Part shown: piece after piece, positions 13,386 through 28,377 of the stretch | Layout of the letters: every line of letters begins with the position of its first letter | Numbering within the stretch: the stretch's first letter is position 1 | Origin: a virus | Lineage: Duplodnaviria; Heunggongvirae; Uroviricota; Caudoviricetes | Length of the DNA: 28,377 nucleotides | IMG/VR virus record: IMGVR_UViG_2675903575_000014 | Span: 1-28,377 of that record | Strand: one strand, 5' to 3' | Notes under the pieces: model-generated | What the model was told of the DNA's origin: nothing | Seen by the model: only the letters and a program-made list of their open reading frames with translations | Database searches by the model: none | Program-made: the position numbers and the translations under genes

Positions 13386-13469
13386 TTTTATATTGGCGAG
13401 GTGACGTGAGTTAAGTAGAATTGCTGCGGGTGCTTGAGGCTATCTGTCTCAGGCATGAACACCAAAGGC

Positions 13470-13560
13470 AGATAGAGAAAAGCCCCAGTTAACATTACGC
13501 GTCCTGCAAGACGCTTAACATTAATCTGAGGCTCAATCTATGAACGGCAAATCTAGGTTA
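13470..13560 (-). ncRNA. Predicted Sok-like antisense RNA of the hok locus (position approximate)
   Basis: Inferred from hok/sok family architecture. The leader (gcttgaggctatctgtctcagg ... ggcagatagagaaaagcccc) resembles, from my memory of R1, the hok mRNA 5' region. No explicit promoter was mapped. Confidence 0.25.
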
Positions 13561-13596
13561 GCCTCTTACGTGCCGAAAGGCAAGGAGAAGCAGGCT

Positions 13597-13752
13597 ATGA
13601 AGCAGCAAAAGGCGATGTTAATCGCCCTGATCGTCATCTGTTTAACCGTCATTGTGACGGCACTGGTAACGAGGAAAGACCTCTGCGAGGTACGAATCCG
13701 AACCGGCCAGACGGAGGTCGCTGTCTTCACAGCTTACGAACCTGAGGAGTAA
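13597..13752 (+). CDS. hok: Hok/Gef-family type I toxin (51 aa; MKQQKAMLIALIVICLTVIVTALVTRKDLCEVRIRTGQTEVAVFTAYEPEE)
   Basis: Single transmembrane helix followed by the conserved Cys-containing periplasmic tail typical of Hok/Gef; I recall this as matching E. coli HokD/RelF, unverified. An in-frame upstream ATG at 13540 gives a 70-aa mok-like extension. Confidence 0.85.
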   Translation: MKQQKAMLIALIVICLTVIVTALVTRKDLCEVRIRTGQTEVAVFTAYEPEE

Positions 13753-16108: not shown

Positions 16109-16468
16109 ATGGGGATAGAATTTGTTTTGCCTTACCCGCCGACGGTGAATACCTACTGGCGTCGTCGTGGCAGCACATATTTTGTATCAAAAGCAGGGGA
16201 GCGTTATCGCCGGGATGTGGCGCTTATTGTTCGCCAGCAGCGACTGAAATTAAATCTGTCCGGAAGGCTGGCAATAAAAATTATTGCAGAGCCGCCGGAT
16301 AAGCGCCGTCGTGACCTGGACAATATTCTGAAAGCACCACTGGATGCACTGACACATGCGGGACTGATTATCGACGATGAGCAGTTTGATGAAGTTAATA
16401 TTATGCGCGGTCAGGTTATTCCCGGTGGTCGGCTGGGGATAAAAATCACAGAACTGGAGTGCGCATGA
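16109..16468 (+). CDS. rusA: Holliday junction resolvase RusA (119 aa)
   Basis: Motifs PPTVNTYWRRRG and PDKRRRDLDNILKAPLDALTHAGLIIDD align with E. coli RusA ([23 protein letters not shown]). Confidence 0.85.
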   Translation: MGIEFVLPYPPTVNTYWRRRGSTYFVSKAGERYRRDVALIVRQQRLKLNLSGRLAIKIIAEPPDKRRRDLDNILKAPLDALTHAGLIIDDEQFDEVNIMRGQVIPGGRLGIKITELECA

Positions 16469-17130
16469 ATAACCAGTATTTACAGTTTGTGCGTGAGCAG
16501 CTCACGATCGCCACCGCTGATTTGAGTGGAGCAACAAAAGGTCAGCTTGAAGCCTGGCAGGAGAATGCCATGTTCAATACAGGGCGTTACAGACGTAAAA
16601 AAATCCGGTGCCGCGATAAGGTCACTGGAAAAATAGTAACGCTGGATAATCCACCGATCCCGGGAAAGCAATCGCTGGTGAAAGGTTCATCAATTGCCCT
16701 GGTCAGTCCGGTTGAGTTTTCGACATCATCATGGCGACGCGCCGTTCTGTCTCTTGAAGAACATCATAAAGCCTGGCTGCTGTGGTGTTACAGCGGTAGC
16801 ATTTGCTGGGAGCATCAGATCGCGATAACGCAGTGGGCGTGGACTGAATTTAATGCTCAATCCGGTACCAGAAAAATTGCAGGAAAAACTCTGGTGCGCC
16901 TGAAGACGTTGATCTGGTTGGCGGCGCAGGCGGTAAAAGCTGAGCTTTTTGGTGGGGAAGGTTACGAATACCAGGAACTGGCGTTACTGGTGGGAGTAAC
17001 AACCAAAAACTGGTCCAAGACATTTACTGGTCACTGGGTTGCAATGAAACACATTTTTCATCGGCTGGATGGTGAAGCTTTATTGTTGGTGGAGGGAACA
17101 CGTTCAAAACAAAAGGCGGCATTTTCATAG
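16465..17130 (+). CDS. Putative late-gene antiterminator (Q-like, 221 aa)
   Basis: Position immediately after rusA and before the pR'-like promoter and terminator; Cys/His/Trp-rich central region; ATGA overlap with the rusA stop. Assigned mainly by synteny. Confidence 0.55.
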   Translation: MNNQYLQFVREQLTIATADLSGATKGQLEAWQENAMFNTGRYRRKKIRCRDKVTGKIVTLDNPPIPGKQSLVKGSSIALVSPVEFSTSSWRRAVLSLEEHHKAWLLWCYSGSICWEHQIAITQWAWTEFNAQSGTRKIAGKTLVRLKTLIWLAAQAVKAELFGGEGYEYQELALLVGVTTKNWSKTFTGHWVAMKHIFHRLDGEALLLVEGTRSKQKAAFS

Positions 17131-20222: not shown

Positions 20223-20501
20223 GTGAATATTGATGATATTTCCAGGTGCTCCAGCTTGTTGCAGCGTATTGAGGATGTTAATGCTGAACGAGCCAGGGCC
20301 TTTAGTCGTTTGACAGTTATATTTTCTACCCCTGATCGCCTTTCAGGAAAGAACATTGTTTTATTAAACAGTGATGCCATCCATAAGGTTTTTGAAGAGT
20401 TCATGGCTGCTAATTCAGAATTGCTGGCTCTTGTTGAGGAATACAACGAGATAGCCAGCCGTGTCGGTATGGATGAATTCAACGTCATACTTCGTGGATA
20501 A
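20223..20501 (+). CDS. Hypothetical protein (92 aa)
   Basis: ORF (probably GTG start) followed at 20525-20548 by a strong intrinsic terminator. Confidence 0.4.
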   Translation: MNIDDISRCSSLLQRIEDVNAERARAFSRLTVIFSTPDRLSGKNIVLLNSDAIHKVFEEFMAANSELLALVEEYNEIASRVGMDEFNVILRG

Positions 20502-20524
20502 AAACATGCTTCATATTTTCTGTT

Positions 20525-20548
20525 AGCTCGCTACTGCGAGCTTTTTTG
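20525..20548 (+). terminator. Rho-independent terminator
   Basis: AGCTCGC-TACT-GCGAGCT followed by TTTTTT. Confidence 0.55.
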
Positions 20549-20859
20549 TATCTGAGCCACATCAGGCGCACATCAAAAACACAGAGCCTTTCAGGGCGGG
20601 GAGGGGGCTCTTGCCGTTACACCGTAATGCAAAATAACAGCATACAAAAGGTATCGGTGATGGTTGTTATTGGTGTGGTTTATTAAAAAAGTGTAAGAAA
20701 ATTATGAGCGTTGTAGTTGAACAAAATGGTGAAATTGTATGAGCTCGGCATAATGAAAGTTCTGAAGGTATTGCCTGCACACGCTGTGTAAAGGACGGCA
20801 CGCAACTGCGACTCGTTGCCGTCCTTGAGGACGCATTTACTCAGGCTAAAGGCGAGTTG

Positions 20860-21195
20860 CTATGCTGGGATGACGGAAATGGAGTGCCGAATAGCTGCAC
20901 TTCCGCCTCCTAAATCAATTGTAATATTCCAGTAACCTGAATGCGGTACATGAAGGTGGGCCGGTAATCTCTGAAAAAAACCGCCACCACCGTGATGATG
21001 AAAGCTTCTTGCGTTGCGGTAGTTATTAAAGTTTGTATCTGTCATCAGCAAAATATTGCACTGATGAGAGCAGTCAACCACTACCGTATCTCCTGCATTT
21101 AAATGCATTCTTTTATGTAAAAACTGCATGTGATTTCCCTGATCAGAGGTAATCAGCCATCCCTCTTTCTCTATGATGAGCCAGCGTCCCACCAC
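20860..21195 (-). CDS. Hypothetical protein (111 aa) with His/Gly-rich tract
   Basis: Minus-strand ORF just upstream of the lysis cassette; contains HHHGGGG; a stem-loop (20791-20828) lies downstream. Confidence 0.45.
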   Translation of the reverse strand: MVGRWLIIEKEGWLITSDQGNHMQFLHKRMHLNAGDTVVVDCSHQCNILLMTDTNFNNYRNARSFHHHGGGGFFQRLPAHLHVPHSGYWNITIDLGGGSAAIRHSISVIPA

Positions 21196-21328: not shown

Positions 21329-21718
21329 ATGTCTGAACCCTTATCCGGTTCCAGCACTGCTGTGGCGCTCGGCGGGGCGACGGTATTCGGGCTGTTTACC
21401 GGGACGGATTTCGGGATTGTGTTTGGCGCGTTTGCCGGGGCGTTGTTTGTGGCCACGATGCCACAGGTGATTTCTGTCTGGCGTGTGGCGGCGCATTTTC
21501 TGGTGTCGTTCATTGTTGGCGTGCTGGGGGCGGATGTCCTTGCGTCCTGGCTGGTCGAAAAATTGAATCTCCACAGCACATCTCTCGACGCGCTTTGTGC
21601 GGTACTGGTATCGGTGGTGTCGGTGAAGATTCTCTCATTCATCCACCAGCAGGATATCGCATCGCTGGTATCCGGGCTGTTCTCCCGTCTGCGGGGTGGA
21701 GGCGGTAATGTTAAGTAA
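21329..21718 (+). CDS. Putative holin (129 aa, three predicted transmembrane segments)
   Basis: AGGAG SD; Gly/Ala-rich hydrophobic helices; located immediately upstream of the endolysin. Confidence 0.6.
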   Translation: MSEPLSGSSTAVALGGATVFGLFTGTDFGIVFGAFAGALFVATMPQVISVWRVAAHFLVSFIVGVLGADVLASWLVEKLNLHSTSLDALCAVLVSVVSVKILSFIHQQDIASLVSGLFSRLRGGGGNVK

Positions 21719-21986
21719 CCTTCCCGGATTACTGAATGTGGTGTTAAGCACGGTTATCGTGCTGACGCTCTTTTTTTATCGTCGTGGTGAGTCGAGACAT
21801 AAACCGCTGATGTCGTGGCTGGCCTGGCTGCTGATGCTGCTTTATGCCTTTGCGCCGCTTTGTTATCTGTGTGGTCGCTTTCCACCCGGTAACTGGCTGG
21901 TCGTCCTGATTAACCTGGTGTTCTGCGTGCTGGTGATACGAGCACGCGGGAACGTATCAAAAATCCTTGTATTACGAAGGCGCTGA
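21708..21986 (+). CDS. Second small membrane protein of the lysis cassette (92 aa; holin or antiholin-like)
   Basis: GGAGG SD; its ATG overlaps the holin stop; two or three hydrophobic segments; its stop abuts the endolysin start. Confidence 0.5.
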   Translation: MLSNLPGLLNVVLSTVIVLTLFFYRRGESRHKPLMSWLAWLLMLLYAFAPLCYLCGRFPPGNWLVVLINLVFCVLVIRARGNVSKILVLRRR

Positions 21987-21987
21987 T

Positions 21988-22533
21988 ATGAAGTCGAAAG
22001 ATGAAATTTTTGACGAAATTCTGGGAAAAGAGGGCGGTTACGTCAATCACCCGGATGATAAAGGTGGTCCGACTAAATGGGGCATCACTGAAAAAGTTGC
22101 CCGTGCACACGGTTATCAGGGCGATATGCGTGACCTGACGCGTGGGCAGGCGCTGGAAATACTCGAGGCGGACTACTGGTACGGACCACGATTCGACCAG
22201 GTTGAGGACCTGTCTCCGGATATTGCCGCAGAGTTGTGCGATACGGGCGTGAACATGGGGCCAACTGTGGCGTCCAGAATGCTTCAGCGCTGGCTGAACG
22301 TTTTCAACCTGCGCGGGAAACTCTATCCGGATATGGATGCTGATGGACGCATCGGGCCGCGTACTCTTAATGCATTACGGGCATATCTGAAAAATCGCAG
22401 CAGGGATGGTGAACTGGTACTGGTGAAAGCCCTGAACTGTACGCAGGGCGAGCGTTATCTGGAGCTGGCAGAGAAACGCGAGGCCAATGAGTCGTTTGTC
22501 TATGGCTGGATGAAAGAGCGCGTGGTGGTTTAA
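21988..22533 (+). CDS. Endolysin, glycoside hydrolase family 108-like with C-terminal peptidoglycan-binding domain (181 aa)
   Basis: N-terminal EGGYVNHPDDKGGPTKWGIT is the GH108 signature; C-terminal region resembles a PG-binding domain (GRIGPRTLNALRAY). Confidence 0.85.
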   Translation: MKSKDEIFDEILGKEGGYVNHPDDKGGPTKWGITEKVARAHGYQGDMRDLTRGQALEILEADYWYGPRFDQVEDLSPDIAAELCDTGVNMGPTVASRMLQRWLNVFNLRGKLYPDMDADGRIGPRTLNALRAYLKNRSRDGELVLVKALNCTQGERYLELAEKREANESFVYGWMKERVVV

Positions 22534-22626
22534 AAACTGACACTGAAGTGCTGAACACCCTCAACTCATGCAGGCTCTTTTCTGGGGCTACGATGAGCGA
22601 AAGTAAGGGGCATAGCATCAGATAGC

Positions 22627-22665
22627 AAAAACCCCGGCTGCGGTAACAGTCCGGGGTTTTCTGTT
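22627..22665 (+). terminator. Rho-independent terminator after the endolysin
   Basis: AAAAACCCCGG-13-nt loop-CCGGGGTTTTCTGTTT. Confidence 0.55.
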
Positions 22666-22693
22666 TCTGGCCTTGGGTAAGGCAAAGGAGAAC

Positions 22694-22876
22694 ATGAGGA
22701 AGTATAAACTAATTCTGTTGAGGTTGACTATGAAAAACGGCCTTGAATTGAAAGCGCCTGTAACTGATGACATCAGCAGAGCGGTGGCTTTTGCCATTAA
22801 GTGGGTGGCGGTCGGTATCGCTGTGTCTCCGATGCTGTATGGGATGGCAAAATTGCTCATTGCTGTGAAATCGTAA
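22694..22876 (+). CDS. Small hypothetical membrane protein (60 aa)
   Basis: AAAGGAGA SD; C-terminal hydrophobic segment WVAVGIAVSPMLYGMAKLLIAV. Confidence 0.35.
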   Translation: MRKYKLILLRLTMKNGLELKAPVTDDISRAVAFAIKWVAVGIAVSPMLYGMAKLLIAVKS

Positions 22877-22893
22877 GTGGGGCAGGGGTAAAT

Positions 22894-23028
22894 ATGTCAG
22901 ATAGCATTATAAAACTGGCGCGAATTCTCTGTGTGGTTGTTGGCCTTTCATTTTCAGCAATGTTGGTTGCCATTTTCATTTCCACCGCCTGGCGAGTATT
23001 GAGCTTATCCGGATTGATTGGTGGATAG
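22894..23028 (+). CDS. Small hypothetical membrane protein (44 aa)
   Basis: GGGGCAGGGG upstream; hydrophobic core LCVVVGLSFSAMLVAIFI. Confidence 0.3.
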   Translation: MSDSIIKLARILCVVVGLSFSAMLVAIFISTAWRVLSLSGLIGG

Positions 23029-23032
23029 TGAG

Positions 23033-23215
23033 ATGAAGCGAAAACACTGGACACACAGAATGCCGCGAACGGCGGCGAAATGGGCACTGGTAGCGATACT
23101 GGTGCCTTTTTTCCTGGTGGGATGCGTCAGCCTGGATAAGGCGCGCCAGCTTTTCGATACAGCTTCTCAGGTCTGTGAAATTGTCGACGGTGTTCGGCAG
23201 TGTATGCAGAACTGA
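23033..23215 (+). CDS. Small putative lipoprotein (60 aa)
   Basis: Signal peptide with lipobox-like LVGC (ILVPFFLVGCVS); mature part has two further Cys. Confidence 0.45.
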   Translation: MKRKHWTHRMPRTAAKWALVAILVPFFLVGCVSLDKARQLFDTASQVCEIVDGVRQCMQN

Positions 23216-23302: not shown

Positions 23303-23512
23303 ATGTTAACTGTAAAAGTCATGTCTCAAAATGGTGGGGAAGAGATCCATTGCGGGCGTAGCATTGGCTATCATCCTGAGCAGCGGAGTATTGCCGTATC
23401 GGGAAAGGATGGGAAAGTCATTCTGAAAGATGGAGATATTGCTTATGTAATGAACCAAAACGCTCAAATAATATCTGTTTATCGGCCCAATAATAGTCAG
23501 AAAAACATTTGA
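23303..23512 (+). CDS. Hypothetical small protein (69 aa)
   Basis: AGGAGCAG SD then ATG; beta-rich composition. Confidence 0.4.
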   Translation: MLTVKVMSQNGGEEIHCGRSIGYHPEQRSIAVSGKDGKVILKDGDIAYVMNQNAQIISVYRPNNSQKNI

Positions 23513-23635: not shown

Positions 23636-23851
23636 ATGGTTTTTAAACACTATTACGTGAACAAAAATGCTCAGAGCAATGGCGATCATGAGGTGCATGC
23701 TGAGGAATGTTCATATCTTCCTGCTGTAGCTAACCGCGATTACCTTGGTTACTATAGTGATTGTTCTTCGGCGGTAACAGAGGCAAAGGCCAAAGGATAT
23801 TCCCGGGTGAATGGTTGCTATTGGTGTGCCAATAAGTGCCACACGTCTTAA
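23636..23851 (+). CDS. Hypothetical small Cys/His-rich protein (71 aa)
   Basis: ORF with a CxxC...C...H C-terminus (NGCYWCANKCH), followed by the terminator at 23871-23892. Confidence 0.5.
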   Translation: MVFKHYYVNKNAQSNGDHEVHAEECSYLPAVANRDYLGYYSDCSSAVTEAKAKGYSRVNGCYWCANKCHTS

Positions 23852-24309: not shown

Positions 24310-24514
24310 CGCGGGTTTTCGCTATTTACGAGTTTTTTTGAGGTGATGGTTGTTGTTTTATCGTTTGATATATCTACTTGATAAGTAATAAGAAAGAAAA
24401 ATAAACACAACAACCTGATGATCTTTCTTATACGAAAAAGCATGTAAAATCAGAGGGTTTTACAAAAAACGTGGTTGTTGTATTGCTTTTTTGCCGGTGG
24501 TTTATGGAGGGGCT

Positions 24515-24992
24515 GTGGCCTTTTTATTGAATAAAAGCGACATGGCCTCCTCCATCGGTATCTCTGTACAGGCATTTGATAAATGGGGTGTTCCTCCTGT
24601 TGAGCGCCGGGGGAGAGAGGTTTTCTATGACGTTAAAACTGTACTGGAGATAGATCGCGAGCGACGTCAACAAAACCAGAAATCTTCAGGTGGTGAAAAT
24701 GATCTTGAGGAAAGGCTACTTCAGGCCAGGGTTAACCTGACGGAAGAACAGGCTATTGCTCAGCGGTTAAAAAACCAGGTTGCAGAGCATAAGGTGATTG
24801 ATACAGCTTTCTCTATTTTTGCCCTGTCCCGGTTATCCGGAGAACTGGCATCTGTTTTGGACAGTATTCCGCTTTCGATGCAAAGAAAATTCCCTGAATT
24901 GACAGGCAGACAATTGGCTTATCTAAAAGAGCTGGTTGCGAAGGGGGCTAATAAATGCGTTGAGTCTGCTGAAAAAATGAAGGAATTTGCGG

Positions 24993-25021
<29 letters not shown>
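24515..25021 (+). CDS. nu1: Terminase small subunit (Nu1-like)
   Basis: Aligns with lambda Nu1 (SIGISVQAFDKWGVPPVERRGREVFYDVKTV vs lambda FGASIRTIQNWQEQGMPVLRGGGKGNEVLYDSAAV; LSMQRKFPEL vs LSVQRRFPEL). GTG at 24515 has a GGAGGGG SD; TTG 24527 and ATG 24542 are alternatives. Confidence 0.85.

Positions 25022-28377
<3,356 letters not shown>

Follow-up and report, generated by a model that had tools for sequence, protein, structure and literature searches.

Organization of the lysis region

The window analyzed here is the whole stretch of viral DNA, 28,377 nucleotides in length, and belongs to an E. coli prophage. Its lysis region comprises two holin genes, an endolysin gene, and three small ORFs (ORF1, ORF2, and ORF3), together with two terminator-like hairpins, T1 and T2 (Table 1). 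The preliminary description of this DNA had reported a holin, a second membrane protein, and a GH108 endolysin, followed by an intrinsic terminator and ORFs of 60, 44, and 60 amino acids (aa). Pfam and PHROG profiles agree with the first three assignments, and the hairpin with its U-tract at about 22627 to 22666 folds stably. The same three ORFs are called by RefSeq/PGAP in E. coli chromosomes with 100% identity to the window, where exactly ORF1, ORF2, and ORF3 are annotated, each as a "hypothetical protein."

Table 1. Features of the lysis region and position of the Q gene in the window
Feature	Position	Strand	Description	Evidence
Q gene	16459-17130			
Holin 1	21329-21718	+	129 aa, Phage_holin_8	Pfam PF16931, E = 1e-22; phrog_198 "holin," E = 3.5e-41
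Holin 2 (second membrane protein)	21708-21986	+	92 aa, Phage_holin_3_7	Pfam PF05449, E = 8e-21; phrog_217 "holin," E = 3.7e-35
Endolysin	21988-22533	+	181 aa, GH108 and PG_binding_3	Pfam PF05838 and PF09374, each E ~1e-26
T1	22627-22666	+	Intrinsic-terminator hairpin: A-tract, 9-bp G+C stem with one bulge, U-tract	Fold energy
ORF1	22694-22876	+	60 aa, cationic small membrane protein	phrog_1115, E = 1.1e-40
ORF2	22894-23028	+	44 aa, single-pass membrane peptide	phrog_4906, E = 1.6e-19
ORF3	23033-23215	+	60-aa prolipoprotein	phrog_7528, E = 3.8e-38
ORF3 signal peptide	23033-23122		Codons 1-30, lipobox LVGC	
T2	23082-23112	+	Terminator-like hairpin within the ORF3 signal-peptide codons: 11-bp stem, GNRA loop GCGA, U6	Terminator scan
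ORF3 Cys31	23123-23125			

All three small ORFs are real genes under purifying selection, with pN/pS values of 0.41 (ORF1), 0.10 (ORF2), and 0.20 (ORF3) and values of 0.11 to 0.43 for the holins and the endolysin. The PHROG profiles cover essentially the whole of each ORF and represent families of unknown function. Scans with Pfam, NCBIfam, and PADLOC revealed no informative match for ORF1, ORF2, or ORF3, and the PADLOC anti-phage defense models gave zero matches for ORF1 to ORF5 (E ≤ 1). Relatives of the three proteins in the databases are named "hypothetical protein" or "lipoprotein" and nothing else.

The T1 hairpin (CCCCGGCUG...CAGUCCGGGG plus the U-tract) folds with −33.3 kcal/mol (z = −2.2 for the 101-nt interval 22600-22700). 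It was missed by a simple terminator scan because its stem contains a bulge. No promoter-like site was found on the + strand between positions 20500 and 25000.

ORF1 and ORF2 belong to a separate mobile module

T1 forms the 5' end of a mobile ORF1-ORF2 module. Cassettes of the order S-R-ORF1-ORF2-Rz carry a hairpin with another stem sequence at the T1 position upstream of ORF1, followed by an identical spacer. The module was detected in 723 of 5,426 complete E. coli genomes (13%), mostly between the lysozyme gene and Rz, as in PhiR12_3 and three sampled E. coli chromosomes; it is missing from K-12 Qin. ORF1 is present in about two-thirds of the ORF3 loci and ORF2, which is invariably accompanied by ORF1, in about one-third. 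ORF3 directly abuts the endolysin gene, with neither ORF1 nor ORF2, at a minimum of 25 loci (at least 25). These distributions show T1-ORF1-ORF2 to be an independent mobile module. It would insert between the endolysin gene and whichever gene for the outer-membrane step comes next, this gene being ORF3 in the window and Rz/Rz1 in most E. coli prophages. The three ORFs had initially been treated together, and all of them do encode small envelope proteins; they are two separate units, ORF3 and T1-ORF1-ORF2, and not one system.

The ORF1 protein has a net charge of +7, a C-terminal hydrophobic segment, and an alternative start at Met13 that would yield 48 aa; it is called a hypothetical protein in all sources. 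The two tiny inner-membrane proteins ORF1 and ORF2 most likely modulate lysis and do not replace a spanin. Lcc6 of Shewanella LambdaSo, a 65-aa transmembrane lysis factor, was considered as an analog of ORF1/ORF2 and rejected. It has an N-terminal TMD topology and another genome location and therefore serves as a precedent only.

ORF3 is the constant fourth gene of its cassette type

Analysis of about 150 related loci revealed ORF3 just downstream of the endolysin gene in every one with covered upstream sequence, often 0 to 21 nt from the endolysin stop codon. The preceding endolysin is of the GH108, M15, or CHAP type, and the holins are of two kinds. In a set of 84 ORF3 loci (80 IMG/VR loci, phiP27, phiSTEC1575-Stx2k, and two E. 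coli chromosomes), the order holin1-holin2-(GH108 or M15)-ORF3 was observed wherever upstream sequence was covered. ORF3 starts 21 nt past the M15 stop codon at 24 loci, and in the basal arrangement (locus L054) its ATG overlaps the GH108 stop codon as ATGA. A divergent ORF3 subfamily, with about 38% identity over the mature part, is located 4 to 12 nt past an M15, GH108, or CHAP endolysin gene and is accompanied by holins of the Phage_holin_8/3_7 or the lambda-S type. ORF3 is the constant fourth gene of the cassette type holin(s)-endolysin-ORF3.

ORF3 was found in 314 of 5,426 complete E. coli genomes (~6%). A scan of one genome per species added just three loci, from Salmonella, Citrobacter, and Lelliottia, and the gene arrangement was identical in all of them. 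ORF3 is carried by phiP27, phiSTEC1575-Stx2k, and vB_Apl-pPE4, all of which were deposited as complete phage genomes, and the gene was found in Stx2e-, Stx2k-, and LT-II-associated prophages. In GER2, the sole ORF3-bearing phage found with Rz, ORF3 is a pseudogene with three in-frame stop codons. Rac-SA53 has the same holins and endolysin but carries neither ORF3 nor a spanin.

ORF3 encodes a short prolipoprotein

The LVGC lipobox and the two further Cys residues noticed earlier in the last ORF were confirmed as Cys31, Cys48, and Cys57. No other ORF in the six frames of the 28-kb window has a lipobox. The mature part of ORF3 consists of 30 aa, CVSLDKARQLFDTASQVCEIVDGVRQCMQN, and ends in CMQN; it has no Asp at position +2, and sorting to the outer membrane is therefore expected. 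Cys31 and Cys48 are invariant across the family, and Cys57 is nearly invariant. Of 155 ORF3 copies, 153 are intact. The pN/pS value of 0.20 was computed over 50 alleles, and the mature part considered separately showed a synonymous diversity of 0.123 versus a nonsynonymous diversity of 0.076 per codon comparison, which indicates purifying selection. Conservation between the subfamilies is higher in the signal peptide than in the mature part (~81% versus ~38% identity), and the lipobox, Cys48, and Cys57 are retained in both despite the low identity of the mature domains. Mature ORF3 is mildly anionic (net charge, −1) and weakly amphipathic (muH, 0.31 to 0.42, with 4 to 9% of shuffles as high). 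The AlphaFold2 model predicts a single long, featureless helix at low confidence (pLDDT 69).

Searching for characterized relatives of ORF3 in Pfam gave no match at E ≤ 1, including the Lysis_col, Entericidin, Rz1, and LysC models. The earlier suggestion of an entericidin-like lipoprotein thus holds for the architecture only, as neither the Entericidin nor the Lysis_col model matches at that threshold. All PHROG matches of ORF3 are to families of unknown function. A profile built from the ORF3 alignment and searched against 1.84 billion representatives gave only 24 hits. Most of these are short members of the ORF3 family, and a few are obvious fusions or repeat artifacts; this search recovered the second subfamily and no link to any known family. 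Mimicry of Braun's lipoprotein Lpp was also considered. The hydrophobic heptad positions 7, 10, 14, 17, 21, 24, and 28 of ORF3 match the Lpp register, and there is no sequence similarity (p = 0.83); Lpp mimicry is kept as a remote idea only.

The ORF3 signal peptide is related to that of Rz1

BLASTP comparison of the ORF3 N terminus with Rz1 proteins revealed similarity to Rz1 of SfV (E = 1e-7) and of 118970_sal3 (E = 3e-8), and SfV Rz1 in turn matches phrog_7528 at E = 4e-5. The homology between ORF3 and SfV Rz1 is confined to residues 2 to 33. Like ORF3, Rz1 of the SfV/118970_sal3 type (LysC, PF23793; phrog_456) is a lipoprotein encoded directly after the endolysin, and both have periplasmic Cys residues and a homologous N-terminal extension and signal peptide (HW[ST]HRxPR..KW ... 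L[VT]GC). As judged from these alignments, the N termini are shown to be homologous, and the ORF3 signal peptide descends from an Rz1 of the SfV/LysC type.

The mature parts differ. That of ORF3 has 30 aa and is predicted to be helical and is not proline-rich, whereas that of SfV-type Rz1 has about 73 aa, with no detectable similarity between the two. Unlike SfV-type Rz1, ORF3 has no Pfam LysC match, is not embedded in or overlapping an Rz gene, and has no i-spanin nearby. Smith-Waterman comparison of mature ORF3 with Rz1/o-spanin C termini revealed no similarity beyond that of shuffled sequences (p = 0.48 for SfV, 0.98 for 118970_sal3, 0.51 and 0.54 for the Yersinia and Klebsiella o-spanins, and 0.06 for lambda). 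Homology to the Rz1 C terminus, which an identity of about 40% by eye had suggested, was rejected on the basis of these values (0.06 to 0.98).

A second hairpin lies within the signal-peptide codons

The conserved T2 hairpin folds with −24.4 kcal/mol (z = −3.9), and none of 200 shuffles was equally stable. In the 4-fold codons of ORF3, synonymous diversity is 0.03 in the T2 stem versus 0.18 elsewhere (Mann-Whitney p = 0.004). Although 97.6% of the cells are paired, covariation is not significant, as 70 of 500 shuffles reach the observed score; support for T2 therefore consists of its stability and the suppressed synonymous variation. Part of the conservation of the signal peptide may serve the embedded RNA hairpin instead of the protein.

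ORF3 occupies the spanin slot, and no i-spanin was found

Sister cassettes with homologous holins carry spanins straight after the endolysin, as seen in Salmonella 118970_sal3, Cronobacter ENT39118, Klebsiella ST13-OXA48phi12.2, and Yersinia vB_YpM_39. Their holin 1 and holin 2 homologs are 45 to 49% and 38 to 44% identical, respectively, to those of the window. The window endolysin shares 81% amino acid identity with its vB_YpM_39 counterpart, behind which a canonical spanin pair is encoded. Reading of the Salmonella, Klebsiella, and Yersinia cassettes revealed an overlapped o-spanin ORF in each, and for ENT39118 only the annotated Rz-like spanin was considered; the SfV Rz/Rz1 pair and the Yersinia pair match PHROG families of Rz-like spanins. 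In gene order, the ORF3 slot corresponds to the spanin slot of these relatives.

To the preliminary description, the cassette had lacked recognizable Rz/Rz1 spanins, and none of the three small ORFs resembled an i-spanin. This was borne out for the i-spanin. No type-II membrane ORF of the i-spanin type was found in any frame of the window lysis region, and the six-frame scan of the window revealed no embedded or out-of-frame spanin pair, an option that was rejected; there is no u-spanin either. On the + strand of the 84 ORF3 loci, no i-spanin-like ORF was found and ORF3 was the only lipobox ORF. Seven i-spanins used as queries, namely lambda/Rz-like (PhiR12_3, a UPEC prophage), RzpQ, SfV, 118970_sal3, ENT39118, Yersinia vB_YpM_39, and Klebsiella ST13-OXA48phi12.2, gave no hit within 4 kb of ORF3. 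The statement that no spanin component is recognizable did not stand for ORF3, whose N terminus is homologous to Rz1 and whose phiP27 homolog was catalogued in 2018 (PMC6139136). ORF3 has the features expected of an o-spanin, a lipobox lipoprotein next to the endolysin, and no i-spanin was found beside it.

The phiP27 genome has no annotated spanin anywhere. In the survey of Kongari et al. (2018; PMC6139136, supplementary file 5), its ORF3 homolog (20706-20861; 95% identical to ORF3, one protein family) is listed as a separated o-spanin, paired with a 64-aa ORF with a TTG start (20348-20542) as the i-spanin. This 64-aa ORF is present in 3 of the 84 ORF3 loci and absent from the other 81 and from the window. 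It has no PHROG match and runs antisense to a phrog_36812 gene (E = 5e-20), and it was rejected as the ORF3 partner on these grounds. As the i-spanin is not conserved and lies antisense to a conserved gene, the phiP27 pair does not represent a conserved system, and the i-spanin entry in the spanin catalogue is probably a spurious false positive. The combined periplasmic domains of two-component spanins span 62 to 300 residues in that survey (PMC6139136). The 30 mature residues of ORF3 are below this range, and the minimum of 62 is that of the doubtful phiP27 pair itself (30 + 32 periplasmic residues).

Comparison with other lysis proteins

The colicin lysis proteins or bacteriocin release proteins (BRPs; Lysis_col) resemble ORF3 in that they are very small lipoproteins encoded by the last gene of a lethal operon and reached by read-through of a terminator. 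Their mature length of about 28 to 33 aa is close to the 30 aa of ORF3. ORF3 has no sequence relationship to them (no Pfam match at E ≤ 1) and, unlike BRPs, has two extra conserved Cys residues and a predicted helix and would act alongside a holin and an endolysin. [quoted passage not shown] Of the features that define BRPs, which include quasilysis with PldA activation, ORF3 shows the small size, the lipobox, and the location behind a terminator.

In phiKT, a coliphage without spanins, their role is taken over by one small protein, the disruptin gp28 (bioRxiv 10.1101/515445). It is made in the cytoplasm, hydrophilic, and cationic and has no signal sequence, whereas ORF3 is a predicted exported lipoprotein with a net charge of −1; ORF3 therefore falls outside the disruptin definition (small, about +7, hydrophilic, amphipathic-helical, and without export signal). 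With the unimolecular spanin gp11 of T1, ORF3 shares a single gene, an N-terminal lipobox, and the location in a lysis cassette. In u-spanins, a long periplasmic domain rich in beta structure is combined with a C-terminal transmembrane domain (PMC6139136), in contrast to ORF3, which has no C-terminal hydrophobic segment and only 30 mature aa.

Proposed role of ORF3 and alternative explanations

The location in the spanin slot, the signal peptide descended from Rz1, and the lack of an i-spanin led us to read ORF3 as an "orphan" o-spanin derivative. We tentatively regard ORF3 as a stand-alone lipoprotein of the outer membrane that derives from Rz1 and either carries out the final lysis step or contributes to it; this falls somewhat short of an even chance. 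An Rz1 ancestor would have kept its signal peptide while its proline-rich periplasmic domain was swapped out. Both units would be transcribed solely within the Q-antiterminated late lysis operon; the Q gene, the lack of a promoter-like site on the + strand, T1, and T2 speak for this late-only expression. The ORF3 prolipoprotein would be lipidated and then cut by signal peptidase II at Cys31. The resulting peptide of 30 residues, mostly helical and carrying the conserved Cys-x8-Cys pair, would reside in the inner leaflet of the outer membrane and weaken this membrane after the endolysin has removed the wall. From the data above we infer its outer-membrane localization, late-only expression, role in lysis, and mechanism.

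With 30 residues, ORF3 cannot bridge the periplasm. The most plausible mode, by analogy to the colicin lysis proteins, would be that a small lipopeptide accumulates and destabilizes the outer membrane locally, rather than membrane fusion of the Rz/Rz1 type. Several points count against the preferred reading. ORF3 does not resemble a classic membrane-lytic peptide (net charge −1, weak amphipathicity), it has no Pfam match to Lysis_col, Entericidin, Rz1, or LysC, its helix model is of low confidence, and Rac-SA53 has neither ORF3 nor a spanin. An o-spanin alone is nonfunctional in the systems studied (lambda Rz/Rz1). [quoted passage not shown] The non-canonical outer-membrane disruption system proposed at the outset is the best reading for ORF3; it does not extend to ORF1-ORF2, a separate module mostly found with Rz. 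A more specific version, in which the ORF3 family is a further unrecognized lysis solution, namely a partner-free, Rz1-derived, BRP-like lipopeptide that possibly activates PldA and whose dose is gated by T2, is conceivable, if on the unlikely side.

It appears unlikely that ORF3 is the o-subunit of a true two-component spanin with an unrecognized partner, such as ORF1, ORF2, a holin, or a protein of the host or another prophage. This is essentially the SpaninDB reading of phiP27, where the homolog is listed as a separated o-spanin (Kongari et al. 2018). It would account for the Rz1-homologous N terminus of ORF3 and for its two periplasmic Cys residues, which fit the spanin disulfide rule, and the authors consider type-I or other topologies conceivable for i-spanins (PMC6139136). 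An ORF1-type gene is also located directly 5' of ORF3 in about two-thirds of the loci. Nevertheless, no partner is constant: ORF1/ORF2 are missing in at least 25 loci and mostly accompany a complete Rz, and ORF3 itself occurs with two holin systems and three endolysin types. The i-spanin ORF of phiP27, which only 3 of the 84 loci contain and which runs opposite to a real gene, would with its 30 + 32 periplasmic residues form the shortest pair of the 2018 survey (PMC6139136), and mature ORF3 is unlike the Rz-binding C terminus of Rz1 (shuffle p = 0.06 to 0.98).

A similarly low probability applies to ORF3 as a remnant of a deleted Rz/Rz1 that hitchhikes with the endolysin gene, in phages that are spaninless and in which the T2 terminator is what is conserved. 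The T2-bearing signal-peptide region is indeed far better conserved between subfamilies than the mature part (~81% versus ~38%), synonymous variation is suppressed in the T2 stem, and some cassettes of the same type have neither ORF3 nor a spanin. Lambda spanins are dispensable when divalent cations are absent, which also counts for a remnant. The mature part is nevertheless under purifying selection (0.123 versus 0.076; whole-gene pN/pS, 0.20), both subfamilies retain the lipobox, Cys48, and Cys57, 153 of 155 copies are intact, and coupling of the ORF3 start codon is seen with three endolysin genes that are unrelated to each other.

That ORF1 carries out the outer-membrane step in the manner of phiKT gp28, with ORF3 being secondary, is improbable. 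ORF1 lies in the lysis cassette and is like gp28 (56 aa, +7; bioRxiv 10.1101/515445) in size and in its charge of +7; gp28, however, is hydrophilic, whereas ORF1 has a C-terminal, transmembrane-like hydrophobic segment, mostly coexists with an intact Rz/Rz1, is missing from about one-third of the ORF3 cassettes, and is under the weakest purifying selection of the three ORFs (pN/pS, 0.41). Lysogenic conversion, an option raised earlier, is likewise disfavored: small phage lipoproteins with conversion or exclusion roles do occur near lysis genes (lambda bor adjoins Rz) and toxin morons adjoin the cassette in related phages (stx2e in phiP27 and LT-II in Rac-SA53), but it is quite unlikely that ORF3, possibly with ORF1/ORF2, is a prophage-expressed conversion or superinfection-exclusion factor like Bor, Cor, or Llp, given the lack of a + strand promoter-like site, the terminators upstream of ORF1 (T1) and within ORF3 (T2), the ORF3 start that overlaps (ATGA) or abuts the endolysin stop, the lack of a PADLOC match, and the location of ORF3 within, and on the same strand as, the Q-dependent late operon.

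Significance

The phiP27 homolog of ORF3 was already known as an o-spanin entry from 2018 (PMC6139136). The present analysis corrects the reference spanin catalogue with respect to a probable false-positive i-spanin (phiP27), and the widespread ORF1-ORF2 pair is recognized as a separate accessory module of lysis cassettes. The ORF3 family bears on the question of how the outer membrane is opened by phages that lack a complete spanin; the 2018 survey includes 31 genomes with a lipoprotein but without an i-spanin (PMC6139136). The family is a tractable case, as it occurs in E. coli, in about 6% of the complete genomes, with the gene right after the endolysin. [quoted passage not shown]

The lysis cassette has ORF3 as its constant fourth gene

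The window is a lambdoid E. coli prophage, and several E. coli chromosomes were 100% identical to the 1-kb stretch around ORF1 to ORF3, the three small ORFs located 3' of the GH108 endolysin gene. The positions of the Q antiterminator, terminase and cos sequences put ORF1 to ORF3 where the Q-dependent late lysis region ends, immediately ahead of cos; lambda has the same layout. The cos match points to the right end of the virion chromosome as the location of the cassette. Two further ORFs lie between ORF3 and cos; one of them, ORF5, carries no PGAP annotation in an identical E. coli chromosome. A match to sok antitoxin RNA implies a putative hok/sok-type type I toxin-antitoxin locus in the prophage early region.

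Features of the lysis region and its setting (window coordinates)
Feature	Position	Strand	Description
sok antitoxin RNA	13428-13602	+	Rfam RF01794, full-length match, 110 bits, E = 2e-24
Q antiterminator	16459-17130		PF06323, E = 2e-89
holin1	21329-21718		Phage_holin_8
holin2	21708-21986		Phage_holin_3_7
Endolysin	21988-22533		GH108/PG_binding_3
T1	about 22627-22666		Stable hairpin, A-tract 5', U-tract 3'
ORF1	22694-22876	+	60 aa; full-length PHROG match, E = 1e-40
ORF2	22894-23028		44 aa; full-length PHROG match, E = 2e-19
ORF3	23033-23215		60 aa; full-length PHROG match, E = 4e-38
T2	23082-23112	+	ORF3 codons 17-27; terminator-like; 11-bp stem, GNRA loop, U6 tract
ORF4	23303-23512		phrog_3909
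ORF5	23636-23851	+	71 aa, 7 Cys; phrog_4298, E = 4.5e-32
cdtI-like stretch	about 24084-24314		Matches right end of phage cdtI; overlaps cos match
cos region	about 24247-24331		Matches lambda-like cos ends (lambda, HK630, DE3)
Terminase subunits	24491-26918		Nu1 and gpA, lambda-type

The PHROGs matched by the three ORFs are families of unknown function, and PGAP called precisely these ORFs, each as a hypothetical protein. Among distinct alleles, pN/pS was 0.41 for ORF1, 0.10 for ORF2 and 0.20 for ORF3, compared with 0.11 to 0.43 for the neighbouring holins and endolysin. The PHROG matches and pN/pS values indicate that all three are real genes. The preliminary description of a terminator followed by ORFs of 60, 44 and 60 aa was thus borne out, and the terminator hairpin (T1) folds stably. 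The last product does carry the LVGC lipobox (Cys31) and two further cysteines (Cys48 and Cys57). A six-frame scan of the whole window revealed ORF3 as the sole lipobox ORF and no type II membrane ORF of possible inner-membrane spanin (i-spanin) kind in the lysis region. The cassette therefore lacks recognisable Rz/Rz1 genes, as had been claimed, and the same scan, other frames included, detected no overlooked canonical spanin pair.

The window was compared with 84 loci encoding ORF3 (80 from IMG/VR, phiP27, phiSTEC1575-Stx2k and two E. coli chromosomes). The order holin1-holin2-endolysin-ORF3 was found in every locus whose upstream DNA was covered, the endolysin being either GH108 or an M15 peptidase. 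The M15 stop and the ORF3 start are 21 nt apart in 24 loci, and in one locus (L054) the ORF3 ATG overlaps the GH108 stop as ATGA. Such stop/start overlap is a classic sign of translational coupling. Since ORF3 adjoins the endolysin gene in other loci, the 500-nt gap in the window represents an insertion state.

When 1.84 billion representatives were searched with a profile, 24 hits were obtained in all, among them a second subfamily whose mature part is about 38% identical and retains the lipobox and two spaced cysteines. Here the lipoprotein gene starts 4 to 12 nt after that of an M15 or GH108 endolysin with Phage_holin_8/3_7, or of a CHAP-domain enzyme or GH108 with a lambda-S-type holin. 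The family thus stands behind endolysins of three unrelated types, with holins of two systems. ORF3 was present in 314 of 5426 complete E. coli genomes and also in Salmonella, Citrobacter, Cronobacter, Yersinia and Lelliottia; 153 of 155 copies in viral loci were intact.

ORF3 occupies the spanin slot and carries an Rz1-like signal peptide

Both holins have homologues (holin1, 45 to 49% identical; holin2, 38 to 44%) in four more distant cassettes, those of Salmonella phage 118970_sal3, Cronobacter ENT39118, Klebsiella ST13-OXA48phi12.2 and Yersinia vB_YpM_39. In all four, a spanin gene lies directly 3' of the endolysin gene. Reading of the Salmonella, Klebsiella and Yersinia cassettes gave an overlapped lipobox outer-membrane spanin (o-spanin) ORF in each; for ENT39118, the annotated Rz-like spanin alone was examined. 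Both members of the Yersinia pair hit Rz-like spanin PHROGs (E about 1e-31 and 1e-33), and the Yersinia endolysin is 81% identical in amino acids to that of the window. The stop of this endolysin gene and the i-spanin start overlap as ATGA, the same arrangement as GH108/ORF3 in L054. By this synteny, the slot of ORF3 is that of the spanins.

Escherichia phage GER2 contains an unannotated, decayed ORF3 copy with three in-frame stops (L090 3001-3168), a pseudogene separated by about 760 bp from a canonical Rz gene upstream of it; this single case fits redundancy. The holin1-holin2-GH108 cassette of Escherichia phage Rac-SA53 (L091 3001-5438) is followed directly by LT-IIa enterotoxin genes, and neither an ORF3-type lipoprotein, a spanin nor any other visible gene for the outer-membrane step was found in that stretch.

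The ORF3 N terminus (MKRKHWTHRMPRTAAKW...LVGC) aligned with Rz1 of SfV and 118970_sal3 (MQNSRSHWSHREPRKISKW...LTGC), with BLASTP E values of 1e-7 and 3e-8, respectively. SfV Rz1, a member of Pfam LysC and phrog_456, also matches the ORF3 family profile (E = 4e-5). The homology ends two residues past the lipidated Cys, and the 5' end of ORF3 descends from an Rz1 gene. The mature 30-aa part revealed no significant similarity to any Rz1 or Lpp and no Pfam match. It is predicted to be helical with heptad-spaced hydrophobic residues (AlphaFold confidence low, pLDDT 69), has a net charge of -1 and is moderately amphipathic.

The published i-spanin partner in phiP27

That ORF3 works with an unrecognised partner is unlikely, although Kongari et al. 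(2018) list its phiP27 homologue as an o-spanin (20706-20861). Their catalogue gives phiP27 a "separated" two-component spanin with an i-spanin at 20348-20542, the shortest pair of the survey at 62 combined periplasmic residues (PMC6139136). The listed o-spanin is 95% identical to ORF3 and starts from an internal Met. The listed i-spanin, however, is a 64-aa ORF with a TTG start (L001 3733-3927) and no PHROG match; it is antisense to a 90-aa gene of phrog_36812 (E = 5e-20) and occurs in 3 of the 84 loci, phiP27 itself being one. By these comparisons, the published phiP27 i-spanin does not appear to hold. RefSeq CDS L32 of phiP27 (20630-20785; L001 4015-4170) is in a different frame from the conserved lipoprotein ORF (20679-20861), and both this CDS and the listed i-spanin look like annotation errors. 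No spanin is annotated in the complete phiP27 genome.

The i-spanins tested were two lambda/Rz-like ones (PhiR12_3 and a UPEC prophage), RzpQ and those of SfV, 118970_sal3 and ENT39118; those of vB_YpM_39 and ST13-OXA48phi12.2 were also among them. In no locus did a homologue of any of the seven tested occur within 4 kb of ORF3, and a feature-based scan of the plus strand of the ORF3 loci detected no conserved type II membrane ORF.

A conserved hairpin lies within ORF3

The hairpin T2, within the ORF3 signal-peptide codons, folds at -24.4 kcal/mol (z = -3.9) and is nearly invariant in both subfamilies, the sole loop change being GCGA to GCAA. Synonymous diversity at 4-fold codons was 0.03 in the stem versus 0.18 elsewhere (p = 0.004), and pairing was kept under single substitutions in 97.6% of cells; formal covariation was not significant. 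T2 is the probable reason for the signal peptide being better conserved than the mature part. That ORF3 is vestigial, its conservation serving the hairpin, is improbable; the intact reading frames and low pN/pS concern the protein itself. T2 could terminate or attenuate transcription, or stabilise an mRNA 3' end. T1, T2 and the absence of detected plus-strand promoter-like sites suggest that only Q-modified polymerase produces full-length ORF3 mRNA. The amount of this mRNA may also be limited, a possible likeness to colicin lysis genes lying behind a terminator.

ORF1-ORF2 is a mobile module of its own

T1 folds at -33.3 kcal/mol in a 101-nt window (z = -2.2). Homology to other phages starts just past its stem and stops at the ORF2 stop. 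Rz-type cassettes have a hairpin with a different stem sequence at the T1 position, followed by the same spacer and ribosome-binding site, so T1 is part of the ORF1-ORF2 module. In PhiR12_3 and three sampled E. coli chromosomes, ORF1-ORF2 lies between the lysozyme gene and a 152- to 155-aa Rz. The module was found in 723 of 5426 complete E. coli genomes, mostly at about 85% identity, and not in K-12 Qin; among ORF3 loci, ORF1 (two variants) occurs in about two-thirds and ORF2 in about one-third. ORF1-ORF2 is thus a separate mobile module unrelated to ORF3. Of the suggestion that the three ORFs form one system, only the part giving ORF3 a possible outer-membrane role was retained.

Because they are mostly found beside complete spanins, ORF1 and ORF2 are not spanin substitutes. 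ORF1 is a cationic protein (+7) whose C-terminal segment is hydrophobic, and ORF2 is barely more than one transmembrane helix; the libraries and databases searched gave no functional assignment for either. They may be regarded as accessory lysis-cassette membrane peptides, for which small lysis-modulating membrane proteins of other phages are a precedent. A disruptin-like action of ORF1 is quite improbable: it resembles phiKT gp28 disruptin (56 aa, +7) in size and net charge, but gp28 lacks the hydrophobic C-terminal segment, and ORF1 usually lies beside Rz/Rz1.

Proposed function of ORF3

The comparisons demonstrate a conserved, selected, endolysin-coupled lipoprotein gene in the spanin slot without an i-spanin, its 5' end being, by homology, from Rz1. 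We tentatively propose, at somewhat below even confidence, that ORF3 is a late outer-membrane lipoprotein aiding outer-membrane failure after wall degradation. It would be exported, lipidated and, having no Asp at +2, sorted to the outer membrane; it would be made late in infection and contribute to outer-membrane failure once the wall is degraded. Bridging and fusion of the Rz/Rz1 type are unlikely, as 30 residues are too short for the periplasm. Among working analogies, the colicin lysis protein comes closest: a very small lipoprotein whose gene is the last in a lethal operon, it brings about quasilysis and activates outer-membrane phospholipase A (PMC9517006). The comparison is an analogy only, since ORF3 was not a member of that family by sequence. 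A lysogenic-conversion or exclusion lipoprotein is a very doubtful reading of the gene.

Databases already contain the ORF3 family, under phrog_7528 and as the phiP27 o-spanin of SpaninDB, and a "lipoprotein without an i-spanin" was noted in 2018 in general terms (PMC6139136). What is new is that the lipoprotein family is consistently solitary, independent of endolysin and holin type and interchangeable by position with full spanins. Also new are its chimeric origin, with a novel mature peptide behind an Rz1 signal peptide, the conserved terminator-like hairpin embedded in the gene, and the recognition of ORF1-ORF2 as an unrelated mobile module.
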